Shown here: positions 19,649 through 51,540 of the stretch, piece after piece | Layout of the letters: every line of letters starts with the position of its first letter | Numbering within the stretch: position 1 is the stretch's first letter | Source: a virus | Virus record (IMG/VR): IMGVR_UViG_3300042197_002234 | Location: 131,528-195,527 of that record | DNA length: 64,000 bases | Reading direction: 5' to 3' (one strand) | Translations under genes and position numbers: made by a program | The notes under the pieces: model-generated | The model's input: only the letters and a program-made list of their open reading frames with translations | What the model was told of the DNA's origin: nothing | The model's database searches: none

Positions 19649-20695
19649 ATGAAACTTGTAATAACCGAAAGTAAACTAAATTACATATTGGAAAGGTTAG
19701 GGGTTGCAGAACCAACACTACCATATGTTAATTTAGTGTATGAAATTTTAGAAGATAAAATTCACAAGTTATTAGAAGAAAAACCAAAAAATTATGTTGA
19801 AGAAGTAAAAATAGGTCACGATTATATAAAAGACATTTACACCAATTATTTTGATGAATTTGAGGAATTACCTATCGAAAGCATGTCAATAGATTTATAT
19901 TTCAAAATTGTTAAGGAAGTTGAGTCTAATAATTTTGCAACTGGCGGCGCCGCTTATCAGATTGAAAAAAAGAAAAAAGGTGGTTCTTATATTAAAAGAA
20001 AAAATATATTACTACCTAAAAAAATTTTAAAAGAGATTGATGATTGTGTTGTTGTTAAAATGGATATCGAAATTTACATAACAAAAAAATTCGATTCATC
20101 ATCAACTGACGAATTGTTGTATGACTTAAGAGATACTATACTACATGAGTTTAATCATATTTATGAGTTTTATAAAAGAAGTCAGTCCGACAAAAGTTTA
20201 GTAGATACTAGTTTAGGTTTATCAGGTGGTAAAAATTATAATGTACCTAAAAGTATTTTTAATGTTTGGAATGATTTTATCTATTTTGTTTACTACTCTC
20301 AACCCCATGAAATAAACGCTAAAACTCAAGAAGCATATAGTAAGAGACTCAGAATGAGTTTTGATGATTTCAAAAACACTTACTATTGGAAAACAGCTAA
20401 AGGGATGGAGGAATTTGATTCAAGTGTGTTTTATAATAAATTAGTAGATACCATAAAATCACATAATCCTGAATATGTTGAGTCTGTTTTAAATAGACTT
20501 TATTCGTGGTTTATGAGAGATTATAAAGAAGTATTAAACTACTTCGATAATGAACCAATAAGTTTAGTTAAGAAATCTAAAAACTTGGAAAGTTTAATAC
20601 GTAATTTTGAACCTAAAATTAAAAATGCGGGTAAAAAATTACAAAGAAATTATATAAGATTGTACAGTTTGTCACCTGAAGAAAATAATTTATGA
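19649..20695 (+). CDS. HExxH protein with MKLVITE leader
   Basis: LHEFNH and PHEINA; leader motif; GTATTTAT upstream. Confidence 0.65.
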   Translation: MKLVITESKLNYILERLGVAEPTLPYVNLVYEILEDKIHKLLEEKPKNYVEEVKIGHDYIKDIYTNYFDEFEELPIESMSIDLYFKIVKEVESNNFATGGAAYQIEKKKKGGSYIKRKNILLPKKILKEIDDCVVVKMDIEIYITKKFDSSSTDELLYDLRDTILHEFNHIYEFYKRSQSDKSLVDTSLGLSGGKNYNVPKSIFNVWNDFIYFVYYSQPHEINAKTQEAYSKRLRMSFDDFKNTYYWKTAKGMEEFDSSVFYNKLVDTIKSHNPEYVESVLNRLYSWFMRDYKEVLNYFDNEPISLVKKSKNLESLIRNFEPKIKNAGKKLQRNYIRLYSLSPEENNL

Positions 20696-40738: not shown

Positions 40739-41083
40739 TTAGTTTAAATTTATTTTTACACCACCACCTGGTAATTCCGTACAACTCCATTTACCATTCT
40801 CAATCCCAACATTTTTCTCGTTCCATTTAGTCCAAGTACCGTCAGGTTCAAGGTCAATGGTTACACCACCTTTATCACCAAAAGTGGCACCTTGACTTGG
40901 TATATTTTCAATAAAACTTAAAAAAGGGTAATCACCTAGTTTATATCCAGACTTAAACGTTTTAGATAACTTATCCCAAGGAACTCTACATCCTATTGTC
41001 GTACTTTGCGACTGTTCTTCAGAAATAACTCGTTTAACAATTCTAATTAAATCTGTTTCTGTTAATCTTACAATTTTTGACAT
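40739..41083 (-). CDS. MSKIVRLTE-leader hypothetical protein
   Basis: Leader shared with 44413-44808. Confidence 0.65.
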   Translation of the reverse strand: MSKIVRLTETDLIRIVKRVISEEQSQSTTIGCRVPWDKLSKTFKSGYKLGDYPFLSFIENIPSQGATFGDKGGVTIDLEPDGTWTKWNEKNVGIENGKWSCTELPGGGVKINLN

Positions 41084-41091
41084 AATATTTT

Positions 41092-41442
41092 TTATATATA
41101 AATATTAATTAAATCATCAATTTTTAATCCCAAGGGGGGGATTCCAAGATATTCCATAATGTCATCTTCAGAATACAGTCTATCTCTATTATCTGTAATC
41201 GTGACACGTACAAAATTACTATCACCTTGATTTTGGTATAAGAATTTACCTTTAGGTGTTTCAATAACATACATTGGGCCAAAATTATTTAAATAACGGC
41301 TTAGCATTCTTGACCTAATATAACTAAATTCTTTAGGTAATTCATATTCGTTGGTCACCATATGAATTTTATCGGTCAGGTCAATACCTAATCTGTTCTC
41401 AATGAAATTTTTTAACTTATTCTCGGTGATTATTAACTTCAT
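41092..41442 (-). CDS. MKLIITE-leader hypothetical protein
   Basis: Start reassigned to MKLIITENKL. Confidence 0.65.
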   Translation of the reverse strand: MKLIITENKLKNFIENRLGIDLTDKIHMVTNEYELPKEFSYIRSRMLSRYLNNFGPMYVIETPKGKFLYQNQGDSNFVRVTITDNRDRLYSEDDIMEYLGIPPLGLKIDDLINIYI

Positions 41443-41603
41443 ACATATAAATAGCGTGAAATTAATAAACGCGGCGGGGAGGGGGTCGATTTTTAAGATG
41501 AATACCAAACAACCCGAAGGGGTCGGGGACGGACGACAAAAAATATACCGACGAAAGTCGGGTTCGGTTTATGCTGCCCCATTAAAAGTATGATTTTTTT
41601 ATC

Positions 41604-41777
41604 TTAATATTGTTCAAGCCAATTATTATACCACTTATCATTCCCCACATTTTCAAAAAACTCTTCTCTGTTTTTCTTAAACTCCTCAGAACATTTGGTA
41701 TGAACAAAATCACCATCTCCAACATGTTCCATTAGAGATTCATTTTCAATTTCTTTTTTACAGTGAAAACATTTCAT
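41604..41777 (-). CDS. 57-aa putative zinc-binding protein (not in ORF track)
   Basis: Manual translation MKCFHCKKEI...VHTKCSEEF; CxxC and HxxC; directly downstream of the tRNA-like gene. Confidence 0.55.
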   Translation of the reverse strand: MKCFHCKKEIENESLMEHVGDGDFVHTKCSEEFKKNREEFFENVGNDKWYNNWLEQY

Positions 41778-41794
41778 AACTTATATTTTAGTAG

Positions 41795-41914
41795 TAGTCA
41801 GGACAGGATTCGAACCTGTATGAAGAGTATGTGTGTCTCTTCTCCTATGGGTTTACCTCAAGGGTTTCCACCTGCCATCGCACGTTGTAGCGTCTACCAT
41901 TCCGCCACCTGACT
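41795..41914 (-). tRNA. Atypical tRNA-like RNA, 120 nt, no canonical anticodon arm
   Basis: Acceptor stem AGTCAGG/CCTGACT+A; D-arm GCGGAATGGTAGACGC; T-arm ACAGGTTCGAATCCTGT; about 70-nt central region; TATCTTTG promoter 41921-41928. Confidence 0.7.
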
Positions 41915-41957
41915 TGAATACAAAGATAGTACAGAATTTTGAATTTTCAAAATTTTT

Positions 41958-42335
41958 TTAATACCAATGGAACCAAACATTATTTACGTCCCAACCGTAG
42001 TGTCTCTTGGCAAACACTTTAATTAGATTATTAAAAGAATCTCTGGATGACTTATCTTTGTTAATTAAATTATGAACATTTAAAAACGGTAAGTTTGTAG
42101 AATTAAATAAGTCATCAATAAAATTAACTCCAACATAAAACTCTTTTCTTTCCCAATCATAATAAAATAATAAGTTTTCGTCATCCTCACTATCAAATAC
42201 TTCGGTATGGTCAATAGATTCAGAATAAGACTCGTAATTTTCAGGGTAAAACAAATACAATAACTTATACAAAACATCAGACTTTTTTTCCAAGTCCAAT
42301 AAATTAACTTGGTTTTCAGTTATAATGATTTTCAT
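41958..42335 (-). CDS. MKIIITE-leader protein, distant W[VF]E-family member
   Basis: Leader; C-terminus KVFAKRHYGWDVNNV. Confidence 0.65.
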   Translation of the reverse strand: MKIIITENQVNLLDLEKKSDVLYKLLYLFYPENYESYSESIDHTEVFDSEDDENLLFYYDWERKEFYVGVNFIDDLFNSTNLPFLNVHNLINKDKSSRDSFNNLIKVFAKRHYGWDVNNVWFHWY

Positions 42336-42715
42336 ACATATAAATATGATAGTTGTAACGGGATGTTCAACGTAGGTCCATCAACTATATAAACTGGTTC
42401 GTAGTAACTCGCCTTCCTTTGTAGGGTATGTTCAACCCACTTAACTATGAGTTCTTGAACTTCAGATTCTTGAAATCCAGTCATGGATGATAAAAATGAC
42501 CCAGTCATGGATGATAAAAATGATATTAAGTCATATGAAATATAACACGCGTCATCTTTATCAAACCTAATTTCAGCATATTCATCACCAATATTCTTAA
42601 CAAAATAAATCCTATCTTTAATTTCCACAAGATTATAATTCTTATTGTTTAATAACATAAAGATAAAACTCTTCTTAACATCCAATTCCTGATTTTCTGT
42701 TATAATTATTTTCAT
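42332..42715 (-). CDS. W[VF]E-family protein with C-terminal repeat-spacer unit
   Basis: Paralog of 43283 and 43645 ORFs; internal 24-nt duplication (SFLSSMTG x2). Confidence 0.75.
   Translation of the reverse strand: MKIIITENQELDVKKSFIFMLLNNKNYNLVEIKDRIYFVKNIGDEYAEIRFDKDDACYISYDLISFLSSMTGSFLSSMTGFQESEVQELIVKWVEHTLQRKASYYEPVYIVDGPTLNIPLQLSYLYV
42360..42436. CRISPR. Mini-array unit 1: partial repeat, 29-nt spacer, diverged 36-nt repeat
   Basis: Partial repeat 42360-42371; spacer 42372-42400; repeat 42401-42436 GTAGTAACTCGCCTTCCTTTGTAGGGTATGTTCAAC (6 mismatches to consensus). Confidence 0.55.
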
Positions 42716-42738
42716 ACATATAAATATGTTAGTTATAG

Positions 42739-42816
42739 GGTATGTTCAACACTCAGGTTAGCCTTTACTGTTCCTTTTGGGTTGTATCTCACCTCCATTT
42801 GTAAGTTATATTCAAT
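42739..42816. CRISPR. Mini-array unit 2, not attached to a family ORF
   Basis: Partial repeat 42739-42750; 30-nt spacer 42751-42780; repeat 42781-42816 (first 25 nt perfect, 3 mismatches after). Confidence 0.65.
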
Positions 42817-42997
42817 TTTTCCCAACATTACGTCTAAGTGGTTCTTTTTTGAAGAAGTACCCTGATATATCTACATAAGGTAATACCTCTCGGTCTCCTT
42901 CAATTGTGGTTGTACCATTTTTACCTTTTAACATCACAATTTTATATCCAAATTTGTTGGATAACCATTTGATAAATTTTACGTGTAATCTTTTCAT
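42812..42997 (-). CDS. Hypothetical protein
   Basis: 61-aa ORF; stop codon falls inside the repeat at 42781-42816. Confidence 0.55.
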   Translation of the reverse strand: MKRLHVKFIKWLSNKFGYKIVMLKGKNGTTTIEGDREVLPYVDISGYFFKKEPLRRNVGKN

Positions 42998-43000
42998 AAT

Positions 43001-43132
43001 TTAATTTATTTTAAGTTTTTTAGTAGTAATTTTTACTGAACCGTTTGTAATTGAGTTCATAATTTTTTGACATTCATTCCAGTTTTTACAATTAGTCAAA
43101 TCTACAGTAATTAAATTTCTTTCTTTTTTCAT
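43001..43132 (-). CDS. 43-aa hypothetical protein (not in ORF track)
   Basis: Manual translation MKKERNLITVDLTNCKNWNECQKIMNS...; TAAATTTG promoter 43164-43171. Confidence 0.5.
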   Translation of the reverse strand: MKKERNLITVDLTNCKNWNECQKIMNSITNGSVKITTKKLKIN

Positions 43133-43232
43133 ACAAATTTTAATTGTTTTAATATATGACAAACAAATTTACGAATAAAAACTGAATATAACAAATGATA
43201 AACAACATTAAAACGATTGTTTATCATCAGAC

Positions 43233-43375
43233 GGTATGTTCAACTTCCAATGACAAAGGGTATAATCGAAATGTGTTGTATCTCACCTCCATTTGTAAGG
43301 TATGTTCAACAACGGAAAATTGTCGATGTTCTTGACCATGTTGTATCTCACCTCCATTTGTAAGGTATGTTCAAC
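43233..43375. CRISPR. Mini-array 3: two perfect 36-nt repeats plus partial repeat, spacers 30 and 29 nt
   Basis: GTTGTATCTCACCTCCATTTGTAAGGTATGTTCAAC at 43275-43310 and 43340-43375; partial 43233-43244; spacers 43245-43274 and 43311-43339. Confidence 0.8.
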
Positions 43376-43630
43376 CCAGTTACCTATAAGTTCTTGAACT
43401 TCAGACCATTTAAACCCAGTCAAGGATGATAAAAATGATATTAAGTCATATGAAATATAACACGCGTCATCTTTATCAAACCTAATTTCAGCATATTCAT
43501 CCCCAATCTTTTTAACAAAATAAATATTATTGTTAATCTCAATAAGATTATAATTCATATTGTTTAATAACATGAAGATAATTTTCTTTTTAATATCCAA
43601 TTCCTGACTTTCAGATATGATGATTTTCAT
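43283..43630 (-). CDS. W[VF]E-family protein ending inside mini-array 3
   Basis: C-terminus WVEHTLQMEVRYN-(spacer)-LNIPYKWR; stop codon lies in the second repeat. Confidence 0.75.
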   Translation of the reverse strand: MKIIISESQELDIKKKIIFMLLNNMNYNLIEINNNIYFVKKIGDEYAEIRFDKDDACYISYDLISFLSSLTGFKWSEVQELIGNWVEHTLQMEVRYNMVKNIDNFPLLNIPYKWR

Positions 43631-43644
43631 GTAATATAAATATG

Positions 43645-43989
43645 TTAGTTATAGGGTATGTTCAACCATGAATCCAACTGTGCTTTTTTCAGTGGGTTGG
43701 ATTTCACCTCCATTTGTAAGGTATGTTCAACCCAGTTACCTATAAGTTCTATAACTTCATGCCTTAGGAACCCAGTCATGGTTGACAAAAATGAGATAAA
43801 TTTATGTGATATCAAACACGCACCATTACTTTTATTAAATCTAATATCACCTTTTTCATCCCCAATCTTTTTAACAAAATAAATATTATTGTTAATCTCA
43901 ATAAGATTATAATTCATATTGTTTAATAACATGAAGATAATTTTCTTTTTAATATCCAATTCCTGACTTTCAGTTATAATAATTTTCAT
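43645..43989 (-). CDS. W[VF]E-family protein with C-terminal repeat-spacer unit
   Basis: MKIIITESQELD start; WVEHTLQMEVKSN-(spacer)-LNIPYN. Confidence 0.75.
   Translation of the reverse strand: MKIIITESQELDIKKKIIFMLLNNMNYNLIEINNNIYFVKKIGDEKGDIRFNKSNGACLISHKFISFLSTMTGFLRHEVIELIGNWVEHTLQMEVKSNPLKKAQLDSWLNIPYN
43655..43731. CRISPR. Mini-array unit 4
   Basis: Partial repeat 43655-43666; 29-nt spacer 43667-43695; repeat 43696-43731 with 2 mismatches. Confidence 0.7.
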
Positions 43990-44324
43990 CACCAATTATC
44001 TTTGTTAACGAAGTTAATTCTTGTATTATCAACATATTTAAAACCTGTATACTCAATCATTTTTCTAAATTCGTATTTAAGAACAGATATATCAATTCCA
44101 TGAACAATCTTTTCTTTCTTTATTTCAGGTTTGTAATTAAAACTTTCTGGCATGTCAGGTTTTGAATGAATATCAACAACAAAACCATGGGATTCACCTC
44201 TATCACCATATCTAACATTAACTTTAAACTCAAATGGCTCGGTAACAAAATTATCAGTAAGATACTTGTTGCCAAGATTATTAAATAATTTAGTAAGAAT
44301 CGTAGATAGTGTGGTAAGATTCAT
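43989..44324 (-). CDS. Hypothetical protein
   Basis: Start reassigned to MNLTT after ATATTTAT; stop overlaps next start. Confidence 0.6.
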   Translation of the reverse strand: MNLTTLSTILTKLFNNLGNKYLTDNFVTEPFEFKVNVRYGDRGESHGFVVDIHSKPDMPESFNYKPEIKKEKIVHGIDISVLKYEFRKMIEYTGFKYVDNTRINFVNKDNW

Positions 44325-44412
44325 ATACATAAATATCGGACAGTCCGAAATAATGTCCAATAAAAAACCCCCAACATAAGAAGGGGGTTTATATTTTAAT
44401 TGTTAATTTATT

Positions 44413-44808
44413 TTAGTCTTCAAATGGGTCAGGAAAATCCATTCCTTCAATGGTGTCATAAAAATAATCAACCGTTCCTTCAATCATATCACTTGCGATT
44501 ATTTCTAATTCATTTAAGGTTTCATCAGATAAATCTTCCTCCTCCATGAAATTCATAAATAACTTATCAAGGTCGTATTGCATTTTATTTACATATACAT
44601 CAATATCATATGTTCCTCTAATGTGACCGTTTTCCAAATCTATTTCAAATAAGTTAACCACATTATTTATCACCTCTTCAATAAACTCTACATAATTCTC
44701 AGTTGGCAATGGAGGTAACATATCATAATCCTCATCTTCGTTTTCTTTAATTACTCTTTTTACGATACGAGCCAAATCGGCTTCGGTTAGTCTAACAATC
44801 TTTTTCAT
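44413..44808 (-). CDS. MKKIVRLTE-leader acidic protein
   Basis: Leader shared with 40739-41083. Confidence 0.65.
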   Translation of the reverse strand: MKKIVRLTEADLARIVKRVIKENEDEDYDMLPPLPTENYVEFIEEVINNVVNLFEIDLENGHIRGTYDIDVYVNKMQYDLDKLFMNFMEEEDLSDETLNELEIIASDMIEGTVDYFYDTIEGMDFPDPFED

Positions 44809-44838
44809 GATATTATTTTTATAATAAATATACGAAAA

Positions 44839-45180
44839 TTACAAAACTTTCCCATCTATAAGAACCTCATCAACATTAAAGTCGGATGACCAATCATAAT
44901 CATACGGAAACTTATCGGGTTCACAACAATTTCCAGTTTCAACATTCATCCTTGATTCAACCCAATGTTTAATCGGTTCTATTTTTTTCATCTCCATGGA
45001 AAGACATAAATAAATTGGTTTAAAAAAATCATAGTTCCACCAAGTGTATTTTGTTTTGGTATAATAAGATATAACCCATTCTTTTGTTTTTGGGTTAATT
45101 AACCAAATATGATTTTCGTGACCATAGACCAAGCAATCTTTGGTCATACCATCAATCATTTTAAAAAACGCGTTTTCCAT
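44839..45180 (-). CDS. W[VF]E-family protein, array-less
   Basis: KHWVESRMNVE; paralogous to 45161-45565; start ATG lies in the terminal partial repeat of array 5. Confidence 0.65.
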   Translation of the reverse strand: MENAFFKMIDGMTKDCLVYGHENHIWLINPKTKEWVISYYTKTKYTWWNYDFFKPIYLCLSMEMKKIEPIKHWVESRMNVETGNCCEPDKFPYDYDWSSDFNVDEVLIDGKVL

Positions 45181-45565
45181 TCAACACCTCTTCCACCCGT
45201 TCCCTACTTTGGAACCAACACAGTAAAGGTGTATTCACCTTGCAATTCAACACCTCTTCCACCTCCAACTCTAAAACGATGGTAGAATAAGGAGGTGTAT
45301 TCACCTTGCAATTCAACACCTCTTCCACCCACTCAGATATAATGGGTTCAAAATCATGTCGTTCAAATGAAAACCAAACAAAAAAATTATGAAAGAATGA
45401 ATGCCTCCACCATAGAGTTCCATCATTTTTATATTCAAAATACCAATACTTATTTTTCCTATCAATAAACCATATGGAATCATTGTATGGTATTATCTCA
45501 ACCTTAGATAATTCTTTATAAAGTTTCTTGAATATAGTATCTTTTAACTTGTTTGATATTTTCAT
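45161..45565 (-). CDS. W[VF]E-family protein translated through mini-array 5
   Basis: VEEVLNCKVNTP x2 plus VEEVLNG, separated by unrelated 10-aa spacers. Confidence 0.75.
   Translation of the reverse strand: MKISNKLKDTIFKKLYKELSKVEIIPYNDSIWFIDRKNKYWYFEYKNDGTLWWRHSFFHNFFVWFSFERHDFEPIISEWVEEVLNCKVNTPPYSTIVLELEVEEVLNCKVNTPLLCWFQSRERVEEVLNGKRVF
45179..45329. CRISPR. Mini-array 5: second repeat type, two perfect 36-nt repeats plus partial, two 30-nt spacers
   Basis: GGTGTATTCACCTTGCAATTCAACACCTCTTCCACC at 45228-45263 and 45294-45329; partial 45179-45197; spacers 45198-45227 and 45264-45293. Confidence 0.8.
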
Positions 45566-45723
45566 AATACAATGATACTAAAATAATTTGAAATAAAAAA
45601 ACGGGAGTGTTCCCAAAAATTTTATTTTAACTTTCCGACTCATTTTATATAAGGGGGTCGTTTTTATGGGAAAATAAAAAACCCCCACCAAAAGGTTTTT
45701 GAATCAAAGATATTTAACATCAG

Positions 45724-46158
45724 ATGAAACCAATAGAACAAACAAAATTTTCACTATTTTATCCAGACGGAAAAAGAGCCACATATGGAAATTGCTTAAT
45801 AGCAAATATTGCATCAATATTAGAAGAATCAATAAATGAGGTACCAAACATATACGTGTTTTACGGAATGGAAAAAAAAGAAACCCCCATTGAAGAACAA
45901 ACATGGTTTAATGTGTTAAACATATGGTTAAAATTTAAACACAATAAAATCATGACAAAACATGAACTATATGAACCAACTAAATCAAAATACGTAATAA
46001 TGAGAGGTCTATCACCAAAAGACAGAGCACATACTTGCATATATGAAAATACTAATAAAGGGTTTGTTATGGTTCATGACCCACACCCATTATCGGTCGG
46101 ATTAAAAACACTACAGTACTATTATACTATAGAAAATGTGACTACGACCCAAAAATAA
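45724..46158 (+). CDS. Hypothetical phage protein
   Basis: GNCL.A.IASILE...VP...H.C....VHDPHP pattern; A/C-rich codon use. Confidence 0.65.
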   Translation: MKPIEQTKFSLFYPDGKRATYGNCLIANIASILEESINEVPNIYVFYGMEKKETPIEEQTWFNVLNIWLKFKHNKIMTKHELYEPTKSKYVIMRGLSPKDRAHTCIYENTNKGFVMVHDPHPLSVGLKTLQYYYTIENVTTTQK

Positions 46159-46426
46159 ATTTAAATATCTTTCCCCTTATATTATCAATCTTTTTTATTG
46201 CCAACCATTTACCACACACCCCACCACCAACATAAAAAACAATTACAAAAACATCCCCACTTAATAACCCCTCTAATGAATAAAACACGGAACCTATTGA
46301 TAATAAATTAATCCATACTGTGTTGAGCAATAATGGAACCAATTTATTTTCATAGGTATACTTAATTTCCAAAACTTTGAATATGTTGAATAATAATTGA
46401 AATATGAAAATAATGAAATATGTCAC
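46142..46426 (-). CDS. 3-TM membrane protein
   Basis: Three hydrophobic helices; FYVGGGVCG. Confidence 0.6.
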   Translation of the reverse strand: MTYFIIFIFQLLFNIFKVLEIKYTYENKLVPLLLNTVWINLLSIGSVFYSLEGLLSGDVFVIVFYVGGGVCGKWLAIKKIDNIRGKIFKFIFGS

Positions 46427-46583
46427 AATTCAAATATAAAGTATGAACCCAACTTTATGAATATTTTCTCCAAAATTACAGAAAATTTTTTTTTAGGAAT
46501 TGGGGTCCAAATTAAAATGGGGGTCGTGCTCTGGGAAATAAAAAACCTCACTGTTTAGGTGGGGGTTTATAAGTATTATTTTT

Positions 46584-47030
46584 TTACTTTAATTTTTGAC
46601 TTGCTAATACCCCTATTTGTTGGACAAGATTTGTATAACTATTAAAGTGCCCAATTGCAGAATCAATAGCTCTTATTAAGTTATCTCTTTTTTGTGTCGG
46701 CATTTTTGAAGATGTTATCTTATTCTTTAATGATGACAATTCATTCATTATTTTTTGATTTGGTTTGTCAAGTTTTTGTAGACTATCCATCTGTCTCTTT
46801 AAATTATTTAGATATTTGAAATAATCGTATCCTTCACCTCTCCATACACCCTTAAGACCTGAAACCATATCAGATAGTCCCTCTGTCGGTTCTTCTTTCT
46901 TAATCTTTAATCCGTTTATTTCATCGCCAAACGCAACACCCTTCATGTTTTCACTAACGGTATGTCCTTCATTAACATATTGACTCAATATAGATTTTCT
47001 ATCTTCTTCAGAAATTATAAATCTTCTCAT
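46584..47030 (-). CDS. MRRFIISE-leader coiled-coil protein
   Basis: GTATTTAT upstream; internal EPTE motif. Confidence 0.65.
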   Translation of the reverse strand: MRRFIISEEDRKSILSQYVNEGHTVSENMKGVAFGDEINGLKIKKEEPTEGLSDMVSGLKGVWRGEGYDYFKYLNNLKRQMDSLQKLDKPNQKIMNELSSLKNKITSSKMPTQKRDNLIRAIDSAIGHFNSYTNLVQQIGVLASQKLK

Positions 47031-47120
47031 AATATATTCTTTAGTTATAAATACTTCCCATTTTCCAAAAATTTTTCTGGAAATTTTTTCCAGAATTTTT
47101 AATACATACTTTGCAAAGGG

Positions 47121-47250
47121 GATTATCCCCCCTTTTTGACCCCCAAAACCCTATATATGGAGGGGGGATACGGGGGAGGGGAGGGGTCCCCCACCCTATA
47201 GGGGGGTATATCAGGGGGTAGTCCTTTTGTTTTGACCCCTGACTCCCCAC
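47121..47250 (+). other. G/C homopolymer tract cluster with G-quadruplex potential
   Basis: GGGGGGATACGGGGGAGGGGAGGGG at 47162-47186 and further G runs at 47201 and 47214; C runs at 47127-47150. Confidence 0.6.
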
Positions 47251-47352
47251 CTCTCTGTAATGGTCTCTAATGAGGTCATGTCAAAACAATGACATATCCA
47301 AATAAAGTTATTAACATGACAGGATGACATGGGGGAATTGTTAATAAAAAGA

Positions 47353-47384
47353 TTTGGTAGTCTCGATTATTATTCGTAACTTTG
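47353..47384 (+). promoter_or_regulatory. Bacteroidetes sigma70-type promoter
   Basis: TTTG (47353-47356), 20-nt spacer, TAACTTTG (47377-47384). Confidence 0.7.
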
Positions 47385-47390
47385 TATACC

Positions 47391-47465
47391 TTTTGAGTTG
47401 GGGTCAAACCCATCTCCTCTAACACATAATCTTACATGTGGGAGCGAGTATACTCCAACCTGCTT
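47391..47465 (+). ncRNA. Candidate small structured RNA
   Basis: Directly after a consensus promoter, no ORF; nested stems GTTGGGG/CTCCAAC, CTCC/GGAG, CACAT/ATGTG. Confidence 0.35.
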
Positions 47466-47531
47466 TATAGTTAATATAAAGTTTCCCCATATTTGTTTGG
47501 TTAAGTGGACACTATTTTGTATCTTTGTGTT

Positions 47532-47936
47532 ATGTATTCAGCGACACCATTATCTACATTAAGGAAGAAGGACCTCAGAAAGATTGGTCAGGTCTGCATT
47601 AACTATTGTATTGAGAACCTTGGGGTTAATAAAAGAAAGAAGTTACCTCTTAAGTTATCCATCAAAAAGAATCCCCATGTTGATTCTTACTTTGGGGAGT
47701 ATTGTCCTGATACCAATACCATTGTTATATTCTATGATGAGTTGATTACCCTTGGGGAGTTTACCTCTACCATTGTTCATGAGTATACTCACCACTTACA
47801 GCCAATTGCTAGTAAGTACTACAAGTTACTTAAGGAACATGGATATGATAACCATCCCCATGAAGTGGAAGCTAGAAATAATGAGAAGTTCTATAACCGT
47901 AGAGTTCTTGCTTATCTAAGAAAAAACCTTCCTTAA
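47532..47936 (+). CDS. HExxH putative metallopeptidase
   Basis: VHEYTHH...HPHEVEAR; TTTG-N20-TATCTTTG promoter ending 47527. Confidence 0.7.
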   Translation: MYSATPLSTLRKKDLRKIGQVCINYCIENLGVNKRKKLPLKLSIKKNPHVDSYFGEYCPDTNTIVIFYDELITLGEFTSTIVHEYTHHLQPIASKYYKLLKEHGYDNHPHEVEARNNEKFYNRRVLAYLRKNLP

Positions 47937-48203
47937 TAGGGTTTCCCTTGAATGGGTTCTTATCTCCATGTTAATGTCGTTGAAGTCTTCTGAACTTAGT
48001 GGGGACTTCTGATGTATCATTTCTATTATGTCCCCCATGTTTGAGTTAACCATTAAGTATACAGGTTTACCTTTCATCAGTAGATTTGTCATTATGTAGT
48101 TTACATATGTAACACTACCTGAATATTCCCCCACATTATATATCACATCATACCCTTTCTCTGTGGGGACAACCTTTGTTTGTATTCCTTCTAAGTAACT
48201 CAT
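47916..48203 (-). CDS. Hypothetical protein
   Basis: ATATTTAT upstream. Confidence 0.55.
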   Translation of the reverse strand: MSYLEGIQTKVVPTEKGYDVIYNVGEYSGSVTYVNYIMTNLLMKGKPVYLMVNSNMGDIIEMIHQKSPLSSEDFNDINMEIRTHSRETLLRKVFS

Positions 48204-49224
48204 GTTAATAAATATATTATGGAACGTATAAATGTGAATAACTTTTTTATTATGAATTGGTCCTGACAGTATGACAGAGGGGAAAATTGTTGAAAACTTT
48301 TTGTTAAAAAACTTGTTTTTGTCAAAATGTCAGTCTTGCTCGATGATGGGGATAATCCCCTCACAGGGAAATCAGCTAACACAAGTTCCCACTTTTTCCC
48401 ACCATAACATACCGATTTCCTTTGTGGCTATACCGTAATGAGGATTTTTTCCCCTCTGACAATAGTCTAAACAATACTTTTTTTACTATATGTATTTCCC
48501 AGTAAATAATGTACTTAACGGTACATAGAGCGGGGAAACACGTAGTGTGTTAGAAACTAACACCCGATTACCATGAGATGTGTTAGAAATAATCTTCAAC
48601 CCCCGACTATAAGGAGGTTTAGTGGACCAATATAGACCACTTAATAGACCATTATATCACCCACCATAACAACAACTTATGGACATCTAAGACATGTGGG
48701 GGAAAGTGGGAGTGTCGAAGACCGACCACAGGGAGTTATCGTTTATATCCTTATTGTCAGGTTTCACCTGACCATGGTGATATACTATACAACTCCCTAA
48801 TTATACCATTTAGTATAATACCATAAGGTATAAAATAATATATACCCTTTAGGGTATTACTCTATACAATACCATATATATTATACCCTATCAGGTCCAT
48901 TATTGTGTTGACCATAATAAAGGGGGGGCAGTATAATGGGGGGATTTTACCGTATGGTAATAATATGACGGTAAAGTATTGGTCTATATAGGAATATTCC
49001 TGAACGGTAATATTTACTCTCGTTTTTAATACGAAGGTAATGTTTACCCACATATTCCTTTTCGTAATCCCCATTACTGTAATGACCATTACGATAAATG
49101 GAACGATGGATTAAGAAATGAAGATTCTAATGGAACGAAACGCCAGTGGAGTGGAATGGTCACGATAGTGAAGAATCTGAATTACTTAATTCATTGTTTC
49201 GTTTATCCTTATATTTATATCTAT

Positions 49225-49530
49225 ATGAAGTATATCATAACTAATAAACAACTACATAACCTAATGACTAATCACTTAAATCAATTTATGGATAGTCGTG
49301 ATGTTAGTAAGTTTGATAACTTTATTATCATTTCAGAAACTGACGAATTATATGATTTTAACAATGTTAGTATTGAATACGATTACGAAGATGGTAGATT
49401 GTTTATTGATGAACACTTTATAAACGATTTCATTTCTTGGTTCCCAGTTGGTGTAGAAAGCGCTGAGGATTTCATAAAAGATTGGTTTGAAGAAACCTTT
49501 AACGTTAAAGTAGAATATACACAATCGTAG
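49225..49530 (+). CDS. MKYIIT-leader W[VF]E-family protein, array-less
   Basis: C-terminus IKDWFEETFNVKVEY; ATATTTAT at 49211. Confidence 0.7.
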   Translation: MKYIITNKQLHNLMTNHLNQFMDSRDVSKFDNFIIISETDELYDFNNVSIEYDYEDGRLFIDEHFINDFISWFPVGVESAEDFIKDWFEETFNVKVEYTQS

Positions 49531-49531
49531 T

Positions 49532-49966
49532 ATGAAAATAGTAATCACAGAATCTAAAATGCAAAGTGCACTTCTTAAGTTACTTAAGATTACATTCCCT
49601 GGCTTTGAGGATATATACTACGATTGGGCTAACTATAATTGTGGTATGGGTGAATGTTGTGACCCTTATGCCATTGGATTTGTTCTATCCCAAAACAATT
49701 ATGACGATTACCTATTTAAGTTGGTTGAAAGTAAGTATTATGATGATGATGGTGATTACTCTAGAAACCTTAGTGATGACCTACCTGAACTCTGTTATGA
49801 GTCACCTGATGTTAGAGACCCTCGTTTTGATGTTATTATATTTTATGAAGTATTCGCTGAAGAACTTGAACAATACTTGGGACCAAAGTCTCTATGGGAA
49901 AATGAATTATTAAATTTATTAAACAGAATGTTCTTTATGGACGCTAAAACAATTTTATTTATATGA
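49532..49966 (+). CDS. MKIVITE-leader protein
   Basis: Leader; coupled to neighbours. Confidence 0.65.
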   Translation: MKIVITESKMQSALLKLLKITFPGFEDIYYDWANYNCGMGECCDPYAIGFVLSQNNYDDYLFKLVESKYYDDDGDYSRNLSDDLPELCYESPDVRDPRFDVIIFYEVFAEELEQYLGPKSLWENELLNLLNRMFFMDAKTILFI

Positions 49967-50367
49967 AATTTATTATTACTGAAAATCAACAAGAAAATAT
50001 TATAAAACAATTGGTTAAATCTAATGGGTTTAGATTTGCATCTCGTGTTGTTGGTAGTCCTGATAGAGTTATTGATATAGGATTTAATAATGACCCGAAT
50101 GAATTTTTAAAATTATTTAATGACATGAGTGTTCGTAAACTTAAATCAACACTATGGGTTTATAGTACAGATGGTCATAACATTGTATTATATAATCCTA
50201 GAAAAAAAGAAGCCACCGTAAACTATAATGATTTCTATGAAGTTCTTATTGAGGGATTTAAGCTTACGAGTCAAGAAGTTAGGTCAATAACTGAAAAGTT
50301 ATTATTGGACAATTATAAAATAAAAGTTAATAAGATTGGTTTTTTCCCTATTAATCAATCGTTATAG
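49963..50367 (+). CDS. MKFIITE-leader protein
   Basis: Leader; coupled to neighbours. Confidence 0.65.
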   Translation: MKFIITENQQENIIKQLVKSNGFRFASRVVGSPDRVIDIGFNNDPNEFLKLFNDMSVRKLKSTLWVYSTDGHNIVLYNPRKKEATVNYNDFYEVLIEGFKLTSQEVRSITEKLLLDNYKIKVNKIGFFPINQSL

Positions 50368-50373
50368 TAAAAT

Positions 50374-50703
50374 ATGAAATACATTATAACAGAATCTAAA
50401 ATTAATACGTTAATTGATAAATTTATCACACAACAGTTTGGTAAACTAAATCATGAGTTTGACGGTGATAGACTTATATTGGTTAGTGACACTGGTGAAC
50501 CTATGATTGTTATTGTGGATAGAGGTGACGGACCTGAGGTTCACGTTGATATGGATGTCTATGGTGCCATTTATAATATGTTCTCCATGAATGATTTTGA
50601 GGATATTCAGTCCTCTTTAATTAAATGGTTTCGTAAACACTATAATATATCCGTGGACGATATATTTACATTTGCCAGTGGTGAAGAAAATTATATATAT
50701 TAA
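50374..50703 (+). CDS. MKYIITE-leader W[VF]E-family-like protein
   Basis: LIKWFRKHYNISVDD C-terminus. Confidence 0.65.
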   Translation: MKYIITESKINTLIDKFITQQFGKLNHEFDGDRLILVSDTGEPMIVIVDRGDGPEVHVDMDVYGAIYNMFSMNDFEDIQSSLIKWFRKHYNISVDDIFTFASGEENYIY

Positions 50704-51540
50704 TTACCACTGTCTTTCTTCAGGAGGAAATGTATTTATATAATCCTCCACTTCCACGTAATTATCACCAATCCATTTTCTTAATTCTTTGCTAAGTTCA
50801 TATACGAACTCATCCTCACTAAGGTAACGCCAATTCTTATACTTAATAACAACCAATACTCTTTTTCTATCATTAACAATACCTACATCTGATACACTAA
50901 CTTTTACATCAGCATCAATTAACTCACAAGCACTAAATGAAATAATTTCATCATCTTCTGAGTTCATTATTTCACAAGTAAGTTTCATATCATTTACTAT
51001 ATCATCAACAAGTTTCTGAATACGTTCCCTCCTAATTTGGTATTGTGGTTTTTCAATTTCCTCATTCATGTTTCTTATTATTTTTCTTATGGATTCATAT
51101 AAGTTCGGCGAATCTTTGTTCCATTTTTTTACATCACCACTTCCTGTTCCTTCATACTTTAGAGTTATTGCTTCTTTTGGTATATCTTGAAATGTTACAA
51201 TATGTTTTTTTGTTGACTCAAAGTGTCTATCTTTATACCATTTAACATCAGGAATCATCCTTGTGTCTATAAACCATATATCATCATCGTATGATGAATC
51301 GAACCACGCTCTTTTATTTGTTGAATTGGTTGCAAATATTGCTGGTTTACATTTAACTCCATAACCCACATATATTTTATAACATTCCCCCGCCCTTACT
51401 TTAAGTCCCTGTTCCATTATCTTATCTCTAAACATTGGATTAGACTTATGAACAATAATTGAATTGGGTATGATTTCTTTCCCTGCTGGAGAATAATCAT
51501 CTTCCCTTAATATTCTTCTTATGGATTCTTGTAGGTTCAT
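50704..51540 (-). CDS. MNLQE-leader fusion protein; N-terminal ADP-ribosyltransferase-like domain
   Basis: VHKS.....DKIMEQGL...AIFAT pattern; internal second leader NLYESIRKIIR. Confidence 0.55.
   Translation of the reverse strand: MNLQESIRRILREDDYSPAGKEIIPNSIIVHKSNPMFRDKIMEQGLKVRAGECYKIYVGYGVKCKPAIFATNSTNKRAWFDSSYDDDIWFIDTRMIPDVKWYKDRHFESTKKHIVTFQDIPKEAITLKYEGTGSGDVKKWNKDSPNLYESIRKIIRNMNEEIEKPQYQIRRERIQKLVDDIVNDMKLTCEIMNSEDDEIISFSACELIDADVKVSVSDVGIVNDRKRVLVVIKYKNWRYLSEDEFVYELSKELRKWIGDNYVEVEDYINTFPPEERQW

Follow-up and report, generated by a model that had tools for sequence, protein, structure and literature searches.

Whether an array of short palindromic repeats, clustered and regularly interspaced (CRISPR), can arise within a protein-coding gene of a phage is the question raised by a 64,000-nucleotide (nt) stretch, hereafter the window, that forms the last 64 kb of the 195.5-kb IMG/VR virus record IMGVR_UViG_3300042197_002234, from an uncultured jumbo phage (positions 131,528 to 195,527; the record is ~65% complete, with 30% GC). 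Between 42.3 and 45.6 kb of the window, amid a run of small minus-strand genes, lie five clusters of repeats and spacers, four of which begin within the 3' end of a gene belonging to one phage protein family. The clusters are genuine CRISPR-type arrays that have grown out of protein-coding sequence. That they grew by insertion in the manner of CRISPR arrays, whatever the enzyme, is held with high confidence; integration by a host enzyme of the Cas1-Cas2 type into a gene end that resembles a repeat, with the products filtered by translation, is regarded as a moderately probable account of how this came about.

Five arrays in and against small phage genes

Four of the clusters use a 36-nt repeat, R1, which reads GTTGTATCTCACCTCCATTTGTAAGGTATGTTCAAC on the plus strand and GTTGAACATACC...GATACAAC in the sense of the genes. 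Full copies of R1 start at 42401, 42781, 43275, 43340 and 43696 (6, 3, 0, 0 and 2 mismatches, respectively), and 12-nt fragments of its end (GGTATGTTCAAC) are located at 42360, 42739, 43233 and 43655; this 12-mer is present in eight copies, against 0.43 expected by chance. The remaining cluster is built from a second repeat, R2 (GGTGTATTCACCTTGCAATTCAACACCTCTTCCACC; in gene sense GGTGGAAGAGG...ATACACC), with starts at 45228 and 45294 and a 19-nt stub at 45179. A stub of the repeat, 12-19 nt in length, closes every cluster on the side far from the gene. The seven spacers measure 29, 30, 30, 29, 29, 30 and 30 nt and are all unique, no second copy of any of them being found within nine mismatches in the whole 195.5-kb record, and neither R1 nor R2 occurs in the record outside the five clusters. 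The structural definition of a CRISPR array calls for near-identical direct repeats of 23-55 nt with unique spacers of one uniform length between them, and this is what the window contains (36-nt repeats, 0-6 mismatches, seven spacers). The five clusters, with their 36-nt repeats and seven unique 29-30-nt spacers, had been listed in a first-pass annotation of this DNA, and all proved to lie where it had placed them.

The repeats are on the coding (minus) strand, and arrays A, C, D and E follow paralogous minus-strand open reading frames (ORFs). In each of these four the first repeat is in frame and reads as VEHTLQMEVRYN or VEEVLNCKVNTP, the gene end that it encodes being WVEHTLQMEVRYN in one protein family, F1, and WVEEVLNCKVNTP in a related one, F2 (WVEHTLQMEV.. 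/ WVEEVLNCKV..), which bears out the claim that the arrays are built into the 3' coding ends of a phage protein family. Array A (42360-42436) consists of a degenerate full repeat (42401-42436), a 29-nt spacer (42372-42400) and a stub (42360-42371); its first repeat encodes the C-terminal WVEHTLQ.. of a 127-residue F1 paralog (42332-42715, minus strand), and its stub sits immediately upstream of the next paralog (41958-42335). Array B (42739-42816, minus strand), with a repeat at 42781-42816 (3 mismatches), a 30-nt spacer at 42751-42780 and a stub at 42739-42750, comes after an unrelated ORF of 61 residues (42812-42997), the stop codon of which falls among the first bases of the repeat. Array C (43233-43375) follows a 115-residue F1 paralog (43283-43630, minus strand); its two repeats, at 43340-43375 and 43275-43310, are identical, its spacers measure 29 nt (43311-43339) and 30 nt (43245-43274), and it has a stub at 43233-43244. 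The 29-nt spacer shifts the reading frame and translation terminates within the second repeat (..LNIPYKWR*). Array D (43655-43731), which follows an F1 paralog of 114 residues counted from the ATG at 43989 (43645-43989, minus strand), comprises a repeat at 43696-43731 (2 mismatches), a 29-nt spacer at 43667-43695 and a stub at 43655-43666 that runs directly into the conserved region upstream of the following F1 gene. Array E (45179-45329) belongs to an F2 gene of 134 residues (45161-45565, minus strand), whose ORF stays in frame across both of its 30-nt spacers (45264-45293 and 45198-45227); these alternate with identical R2 repeats (45294-45329 and 45228-45263), and the 19-nt stub (45179-45197) holds the ATG (45180) of the next paralog. 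The possibility that a single array had been split by a cassette (42806-43232) was considered and found unneeded, since the repeat at 42781 has a diverged 3' end of its own and all F1 arrays regularly close with a stub.

An AlphaFold2 model of F1 (mean predicted local distance difference test score 85) is a compact alpha/beta domain, and in the 115-residue protein encoded at 43283-43630 the repeat-encoded segment begins within the last helix (residues 75-90). Because the first residues encoded by the repeat fall inside that helix, the repeat is, going by the predicted structure, real coding sequence.

Protein searches recovered ~600 metagenomic homologs with such arrays, 423 of F2 and 203 of F1. 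The arrays hold one to three units in F1 and up to nine in F2; the F2 proteins lengthen in steps of 22 residues, and F2 genes of IMG/VR relatives carry three to nine repeats with a period of 66 nt. Nearly all of the 203 F1 homologs have the 12-residue repeat, ~10 unique residues and a second repeat out of frame (..LNIPYK..), and most F1 arrays have one spacer followed by a repeat stub only. Repeat-bearing paralogs occur in tandem, with five arrays within 3 kb in the window and at least six genes at a related locus (L163). No homologs of the family were found among GenBank phages, Pfam and PHROGs returned nothing for it, a fold search of the Protein Data Bank gave no match, and BFVD yielded only uncharacterised proteins of uncultured phages.

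Likeness to type VI-B repeats

The repeats had been described at first as CRISPR-like and close to those of type VI-B (Cas13b) systems, and in both shape and sequence they do fall with the Cas13b repeat family of the Bacteroidota. A 20-base pattern, made of the R1 positions in common with Cas13b repeats, retrieved 78 genome stretches, nearly all of them Bacteroidota arrays; many of these lie just downstream of ORFs of 1,100-1,250 residues, and the six such ORFs tested all encode Cas13b (NF038190, E below 1e-190). Since a set retrieved in this way is circular for R1, the weight is carried by two independent checks. At a Cas13b locus identified by protein profile, the repeat is identical to R1 at 25 of 36 positions. 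The F2 repeats, which had no part in building the pattern, have mean identities to the repeats of the retrieved loci of 17.5-22.7 of 36 across seven variants, six of which reach at least 20, against a background from 20,000 random phage 36-mers with a mean of 9.7 and a maximum of 19.5. At the level of the family, therefore, the arrays agree with the VI-B form, that is, 36-nt repeats of the type GTTG..TTTG.A.GGTA..CAAC and spacers of ~30 nt. In the real VI-B arrays of these loci 82% of the spacers measure 30 nt, 13% measure 29 nt and 4% measure 31 nt, and the range of 27-31 nt in the phage arrays is compatible with the 28-32 bp of newly acquired II-C/VI-B spacers (PMC8092290). Rfam gave no match over the window at the gathering threshold, and neither a CRISPR repeat family nor any other pertinent match over 42300-45600 with E values up to 10.

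Read as mRNA, R1 is predicted to form a terminal stem and a 6-bp inner stem, a VI-B-like shape (-6.5 kcal/mol, z = -2.0), although the fold is weaker than that of VI-B repeats (-11 to -12 kcal/mol); the F2 repeats have no repeat-like inner stem. The plus strand, on which R1 matches Cas13b repeats at 25 of 36 positions, was initially favoured as the RNA sense and was given up because VI-B repeats are quasi-palindromic, so that R1 fits both ways. The gene sense is preferred because the F2 repeats score 17.5-22.7 in that orientation versus 14.7-17.0 in antisense, because the R1 hairpin, which depends on G-U pairs, reaches -6.5 rather than -3.6 kcal/mol, because the growing end of the arrays is the gene side, and because ACAAC is then distal to the leader, where the motif common to II-C and VI-B repeats is found (the leader-distal GTTGT of PMC8092290, which at the VI-B repeat's 3' end reads ACAAC). 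Among real Cas13b arrays (L052, L064, L072, L076 and L078), several were seen to have a degenerate first copy in the cas13b sense, affected in its 5' part, and in other real VI-B arrays the degenerate copy is the last one; the polarity of arrays relative to cas13b may differ between lineages.

Probable growth by insertion and a filter of translation

The variable parts of the arrays are not related to one another. The 354 ten-residue inserts from 102 F2 arrays include 252 that are distinct, and these are mutually unrelated, while the first spacers of 118 F1 homologs include 101 distinct ones. GC content of the spacers is 43% and flat across codon positions, as against 31/26/31% in the N-domain and 30% in the phage. 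Each unit has the form repeat-spacer-repeat in which the repeat is the gene's own 36-nt sequence, in other words an insert accompanied by a duplicated target of repeat length, the structure by which a newly founded CRISPR array (neo-CRISPR) is recognised. Close relatives differ by entire units and the order of the units in common is always preserved; all 70 array pairs with at least two common spacers are colinear. Repeat variants specific to a lineage have been copied within each array, distal repeats are degenerate, and the arrays end in stubs or degenerate repeats. The stub and the upstream region of the next gene (..CTACAA|CTAACATATTTATA..) are conserved across phages, and the spacer that precedes them differs in almost every homolog. 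The spacer nearest the gene also occurs in another protein in 31% of the arrays, and the one farthest from it in 61% (p = 4e-5), so that growth is polarised as in CRISPR arrays, save in one population. That population was recovered with a single 24-nt spacer probe, which found the array of the same phage in 16 lake metagenome contigs; in each of these samples the array holds a subset of the list a-b-c-(g)-d-e-f in unchanged order, a pattern consistent with loss between repeats together with a few insertions.

The boundaries of the units are set by DNA and not by codons. An F1 unit starts at the first base of a valine codon and an F2 unit one base before it, position 30 of the F2 'spacer' being G in 57 of 62 cases, and because of this earlier boundary the units of both families read G[T/G]TG...ACAAC. 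Among 26 F1 spacers 15 are of 29 nt, six of 30 nt and five of 31 nt, giving periods of 65, 66 and 67 nt, and the F1 arrays extend past the stop codon. Tandem repeats of a protein would descend along their whole length and keep a period that is a multiple of three; here the variable parts are unrelated and the F1 periods vary. The first-pass annotation had named, as the pattern that would count against its reading, spacers always a multiple of three in length with conservation at the protein level only. The F2 spacers, 62 of 65 being exactly 30 nt, do follow that pattern in their length, but the DNA-level boundaries and the 29-, 30- and 31-nt spacers of F1 contradict it.

Translation has nonetheless left a strong mark on the arrays. 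In the gene frame the 65 F2 spacers contain one stop in 647 codons, whereas each of the other five frames contains 24-50, and the reading frame is kept because 62 of the 65 are of exactly 30 nt (versus 82% of spacers in real VI-B arrays). Early stops occur in only six of 118 F1 first spacers, and in some phages the ORF goes on across degenerate units of greater age and closes with a conserved end. For the spacer peptides no sign of purifying selection was seen: their variable sites are distributed 9/5/6 over the three codon positions, compared with 16/7/33 in the N-domain, and their residue frequencies are near those of random DNA of the same composition. Single-base substitutions between repeats of one array are synonymous in 51% of cases against 24% expected, an excess that is to be anticipated if every added repeat is a copy of the first, itself under protein selection. 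The repeat codons ACC, GAG, GTG, TAC and AAC run counter to the composition of a 30% GC phage. Among 16 F2 genes, 15 have GTGGAAGAGGT in nearly invariant form, and a given residue is encoded by one and the same codon in two genes with a probability of 0.77 in the repeat versus 0.62 upstream of it. Selection for a frame shift was considered as the reason for the 29-nt length of F1 spacers and found no support, since untranslated internal F1 spacers are also mostly of 29 nt.

Several further features of the record were noted in passing. Eleven ORFs of 108-501 residues across the record begin with MK(I/L)(I/V)(I/L)TE(S/N/D)(Q/K), those in the window being at 19649, 39670, 40656, 41442, 42335, 42715, 43630, 43989, 49532 and 53927, and the same start is seen in relatives (MKYLITESQL at the related locus L009). 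To judge from sequence, its I-T-E motif resembles the (L/I)xE cleavage/targeting signal of T4-type prohead proteases, and the proteins may be packaged in the virion. On the minus strand at 41795-41914 there is a tRNA-like T-arm and acceptor end (GGTTCGAATCC); neither ARAGORN nor Rfam called a tRNA there or elsewhere in the whole window. Intergenic hairpins of the form AAAAAACCCCC..GGGGGTTT are repeated at 44359-44393, 45673-45707 and 46537-46571 and look like bidirectional intrinsic terminators. Outside the window, at record positions 40764-50795, an ORF of 3,343 residues contains short periodic repeats that triggered the detector for repeats of period 60-70 and are unrelated to the arrays.

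Origin of the arrays and relation to known systems

The mechanism proposed here starts from the 36 nt that close the coding sequence of the folded domain in two related small proteins. These resemble a Bacteroidota VI-B/II-C repeat (G[T/G]TG start, ACAAC end), and a spacer integrase of the Cas1-Cas2 kind would take the gene end for a leader-repeat junction. The integrase would most likely be a host adaptation module of the II-C type, which is known to supply VI-B arrays in trans: the II-C Cas1/2 of Flavobacterium columnare does so despite the different leaders and repeats of the two loci, and the new spacers are of 28-32 bp, about half of them derived from the host chromosome (PMC8092290). We infer that host Cas1-Cas2 acts as the integrase of the phage arrays and that their spacers were captured from foreign DNA, probably the host's. 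Each event would add ~30 nt of foreign sequence and a second copy of the 36-nt coding segment, so that growth would occur mainly at the gene-proximal end, with shrinkage by deletion between repeats. Only some insertions would survive because the array is part of an ORF or directly follows one. In F2 the survivors are stop-free 30-nt inserts, each unit then adding 12 conserved and 10 random-like residues; in F1 the first spacer is nearly always stop-free and translation ends in the next repeat or stub. It counts in favour of integration that no array is carried by paralogs in which the helix DNA has no ends of the G[T/G]TG/ACAAC type, but begins TTTG... and is without the ACAAC end. Two genes without an array are in the window, both on the minus strand: the family member at 41958-42335, which starts with MKIIITENQ and has no repeat-like gene end, and the F2-like paralog at 44839-45180 (..HWVESRMNVE..), whose first 20 nt are at the same time the last 20 nt of the ORF that bears the array.

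No cas gene had been seen in the window by the first-pass annotation, and profile searches extend this to the whole record. Profiles for Cas13b, Cas1, Cas2 and reverse transcriptase found nothing in the record (65% complete; G000), in two partial relatives (G002 and G004) or in a relative of 326 kb that is 100% complete (G003), and a CRISPR-Cas locus in the sense of an array with cas genes in the same genome is thus absent from the four phage records.

Several observations weigh against integration by a host enzyme. The best identity to any real repeat is 27 of 36 (75%), a likeness to the family and not a match to a single host. F1 spacers centre on 29 nt (15 of 26), compared with 13% of that length in real VI-B arrays. 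In the 16-sample population the gene-proximal spacer is the common one and the variation is internal, so that ectopic integration or differential loss is needed to explain it; ectopic insertion within arrays is documented (PMC7999890). The presence of units in nearly every homolog exceeds what a rare neutral accident would give, and hints at selection or very efficient targeting. Finally, no protospacer was found in the phage itself, three relatives, IMG/VR (for two spacers of the window), Flavobacterium rRNA or ~800 sampled Flavobacteriales/Flavobacterium genomes, the genome searches being weak because only two candidates per genome were scored. A comparison of 72 spacers with four related phage genomes and nine loci gave one match, to a homologous trailer spacer; exact scans of IMG/VR with two spacers of the window gave nothing, and the longest match to Flavobacterium rRNA was 11 nt. 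In the reverse direction, 566 spacers from real VI-B arrays gave only partial, chance-level matches to these phages. The arrays of a related locus (L011) matched AT-rich noise only in 401 Flavobacteriales genomes, and those of the window gave, in 401 genomes from the genus to which the F. columnare record belongs, a single 80-nt match of 78%, to a phage-like gene and not a spacer (two candidates scored per genome in both cases). This match involves the start of the phage gene at 44413-44808 (window positions 44743-44822) and a 1.6-kb contig that may be a binned phage fragment, and as a hint to the host it is weak. A sequence such as NNNNNTAAA exemplifies the acquisition motif of II-C-type modules.

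Selection could have been at work on the gene end without any change in the mechanism of integration. If the end were kept repeat-like by selection, the arrays would be scars of that mimicry, either because it would present at the DNA level a multi-copy decoy of the leader-repeat junction, diverting the host integrase from the host array, or, in F1, because an mRNA hairpin would soak up Cas13b in the way of an RNA anti-CRISPR. Almost all of the ~600 homologs have kept at least one unit, repeat-bearing paralogs have multiplied in tandem, the repeat codons are GC-rich and unusually conserved within an AT-rich genome, and R1 is predicted to fold in the mRNA sense like a VI-B repeat; moreover, the published survey of RNA anti-CRISPRs masked ORFs and had no type VI cases (PMC10651486), and because of that masking gene-embedded mimics would have escaped it. 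The inner stem is missing in F2, however, identity to real repeats is at most 75% where 90% has been used for calling repeat mimics, the excess of codon conservation is modest, and what a lytic phage would gain by decoying adaptation is a matter of speculation, so that this selected mimicry is considered rather unlikely. RNA anti-CRISPRs as so called are non-coding, solitary repeats with at least 90% identity, and the elements described here are coding and bear spacers. Taken more broadly, the notion of the gene end as a selected device, whether a novel type of anti-CRISPR diverting the integrase or Cas13b or a novel means of protein hypervariation by which captured DNA writes random ten-residue tail cassettes, is a tentative possibility; the small proteins that start with MKIIITES.., which resembles a prohead protease signal, may on that resemblance be delivered by the virion.

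It had also been proposed that the locus is a cassette of a protein and its guide RNA, and arrays that are transcribed, processed and used by host Cas13b or Cas9 against competing phages or host transcripts would agree with the VI-B repeat family and geometry, with the ability of R1 to form the repeat hairpin, and with the compact arrays of huge phages, which lack adaptation genes and in some cases effectors (PMC7162821). The F2 repeats have no hairpin, however, in most F1 arrays the sole spacer is followed by nothing more than a stub of 12-18 nt, the 72 spacers found no target in the four related phage genomes, spacer turnover is slow relative to sequence divergence, and the signal that is strongest, a filter on frame and stop codons, is not predicted by a guide function. 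A repeat 3' of the spacer is reportedly required in the Cas13b CRISPR RNA. A guide role is accordingly not supported, and is judged improbable. Growth by the same kind of insertion through an unrecognised integrase or nuclease of the phage, perhaps serving to diversify protein tails, would account for the arrays in essentially all family members and many phage lineages and for the 29-nt F1 spacers, which are unlike those of host arrays, and much of these 200-330-kb genomes is unannotated. Against it, the four phage records, one of them complete, yielded no homolog of Cas1, Cas2 or reverse transcriptase, the termini and sizes of the units match the Bacteroidota II-C/VI-B system, and the spacer peptides bear no sign of selection, leaving a phage enzyme only a slim chance. 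That the arrays are ordinary protein tandem repeats of 12 conserved and 10 variable residues, produced by duplication and point mutation and resembling CRISPR by coincidence, is suggested by a period of 66 nt, or 22 codons, by the open reading frames of the F2 arrays and by the synonymous excess among repeat substitutions (51% against 24%), but the last would be expected if the repeats are copies of a selected first one. Inserts are mutually dissimilar while the flanking DNA of two relatives aligns at ~78-84%, their composition is unlike phage coding DNA at all codon positions, those of F1 vary between 29, 30 and 31 nt and continue beyond the stop codon, the one-base codon offset between F1 and F2 leaves identical G[T/G]TG...ACAAC ends, and the arrays have the polarity and colinearity of CRISPR; coincidence is accordingly given almost no credence.

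If host Cas1-Cas2 does write into phage genes, viral genomes would contain a readable and ordered record of CRISPR adaptation that could name hosts, and spacer integration would be able to create coding sequence at 22 codons per event. It would also point to repeat mimicry inside ORFs, which are masked in surveys of phage CRISPR elements (PMC10651486). The matter bears on the target-site promiscuity of II-C-type integrases and on phage interference with adaptation or with Cas13b, type VI mimics having been absent from that survey (PMC10651486).

Phage arrays without cas genes and off-target arrays are already known. Translatable arrays that arise from the last helix of a protein and recur in ~600 homologs have no description in the literature searched, and neither has the gene-embedded layout, which the first-pass annotation had taken to be undescribed. 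RNA anti-CRISPRs (Racrs) resemble the phage repeats in being phage mimics of the host CRISPR repeat, and the F1 mRNA can fold like a repeat, but Racrs do not code for protein, match a known repeat with an identity of 90% or more, and include no type VI example (PMC10651486). The arrays of huge phages, some spacers of which target other phages or the host (PMC7162821), and the mini-arrays of viruses (PMC7099407) are likewise short, phage-borne and devoid of adaptation genes; unlike the present ones they lie between genes and carry repeats that match the cas loci of hosts or phages, none being reported within an ORF. Over-expressed Cas1-Cas2 can found new arrays off-target (Nivala, Shipman and Church, 2018, as cited in 10.1101/148544), and these neo-CRISPR arrays, to go by that secondary account, share the spacer-length insert and the duplicated repeat-like target, with the seeded site able to grow. 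As the same account has it, that case concerns E. coli, over-expressed enzyme and chromosomal sites, whereas the phage arrays would be natural, present in hundreds of homologs and inside translated sequence. The closest resemblance is to VI-B arrays (PMC8092290), which also have 36-nt repeats running from GTTG to ACAAC, spacers of 28-32 nt that are mostly of 30 nt, growth at one end, degenerate far repeats and no adjoining adaptation genes, and which tolerate host-derived spacers. They differ in that the phage has no cas13b, its arrays are short (one to nine units), lie in or against an ORF, are filtered by frame and stop codons and in F2 lack the hairpin, and in that the 'leader' of the phage array is a protein gene and the repeat its last helix.

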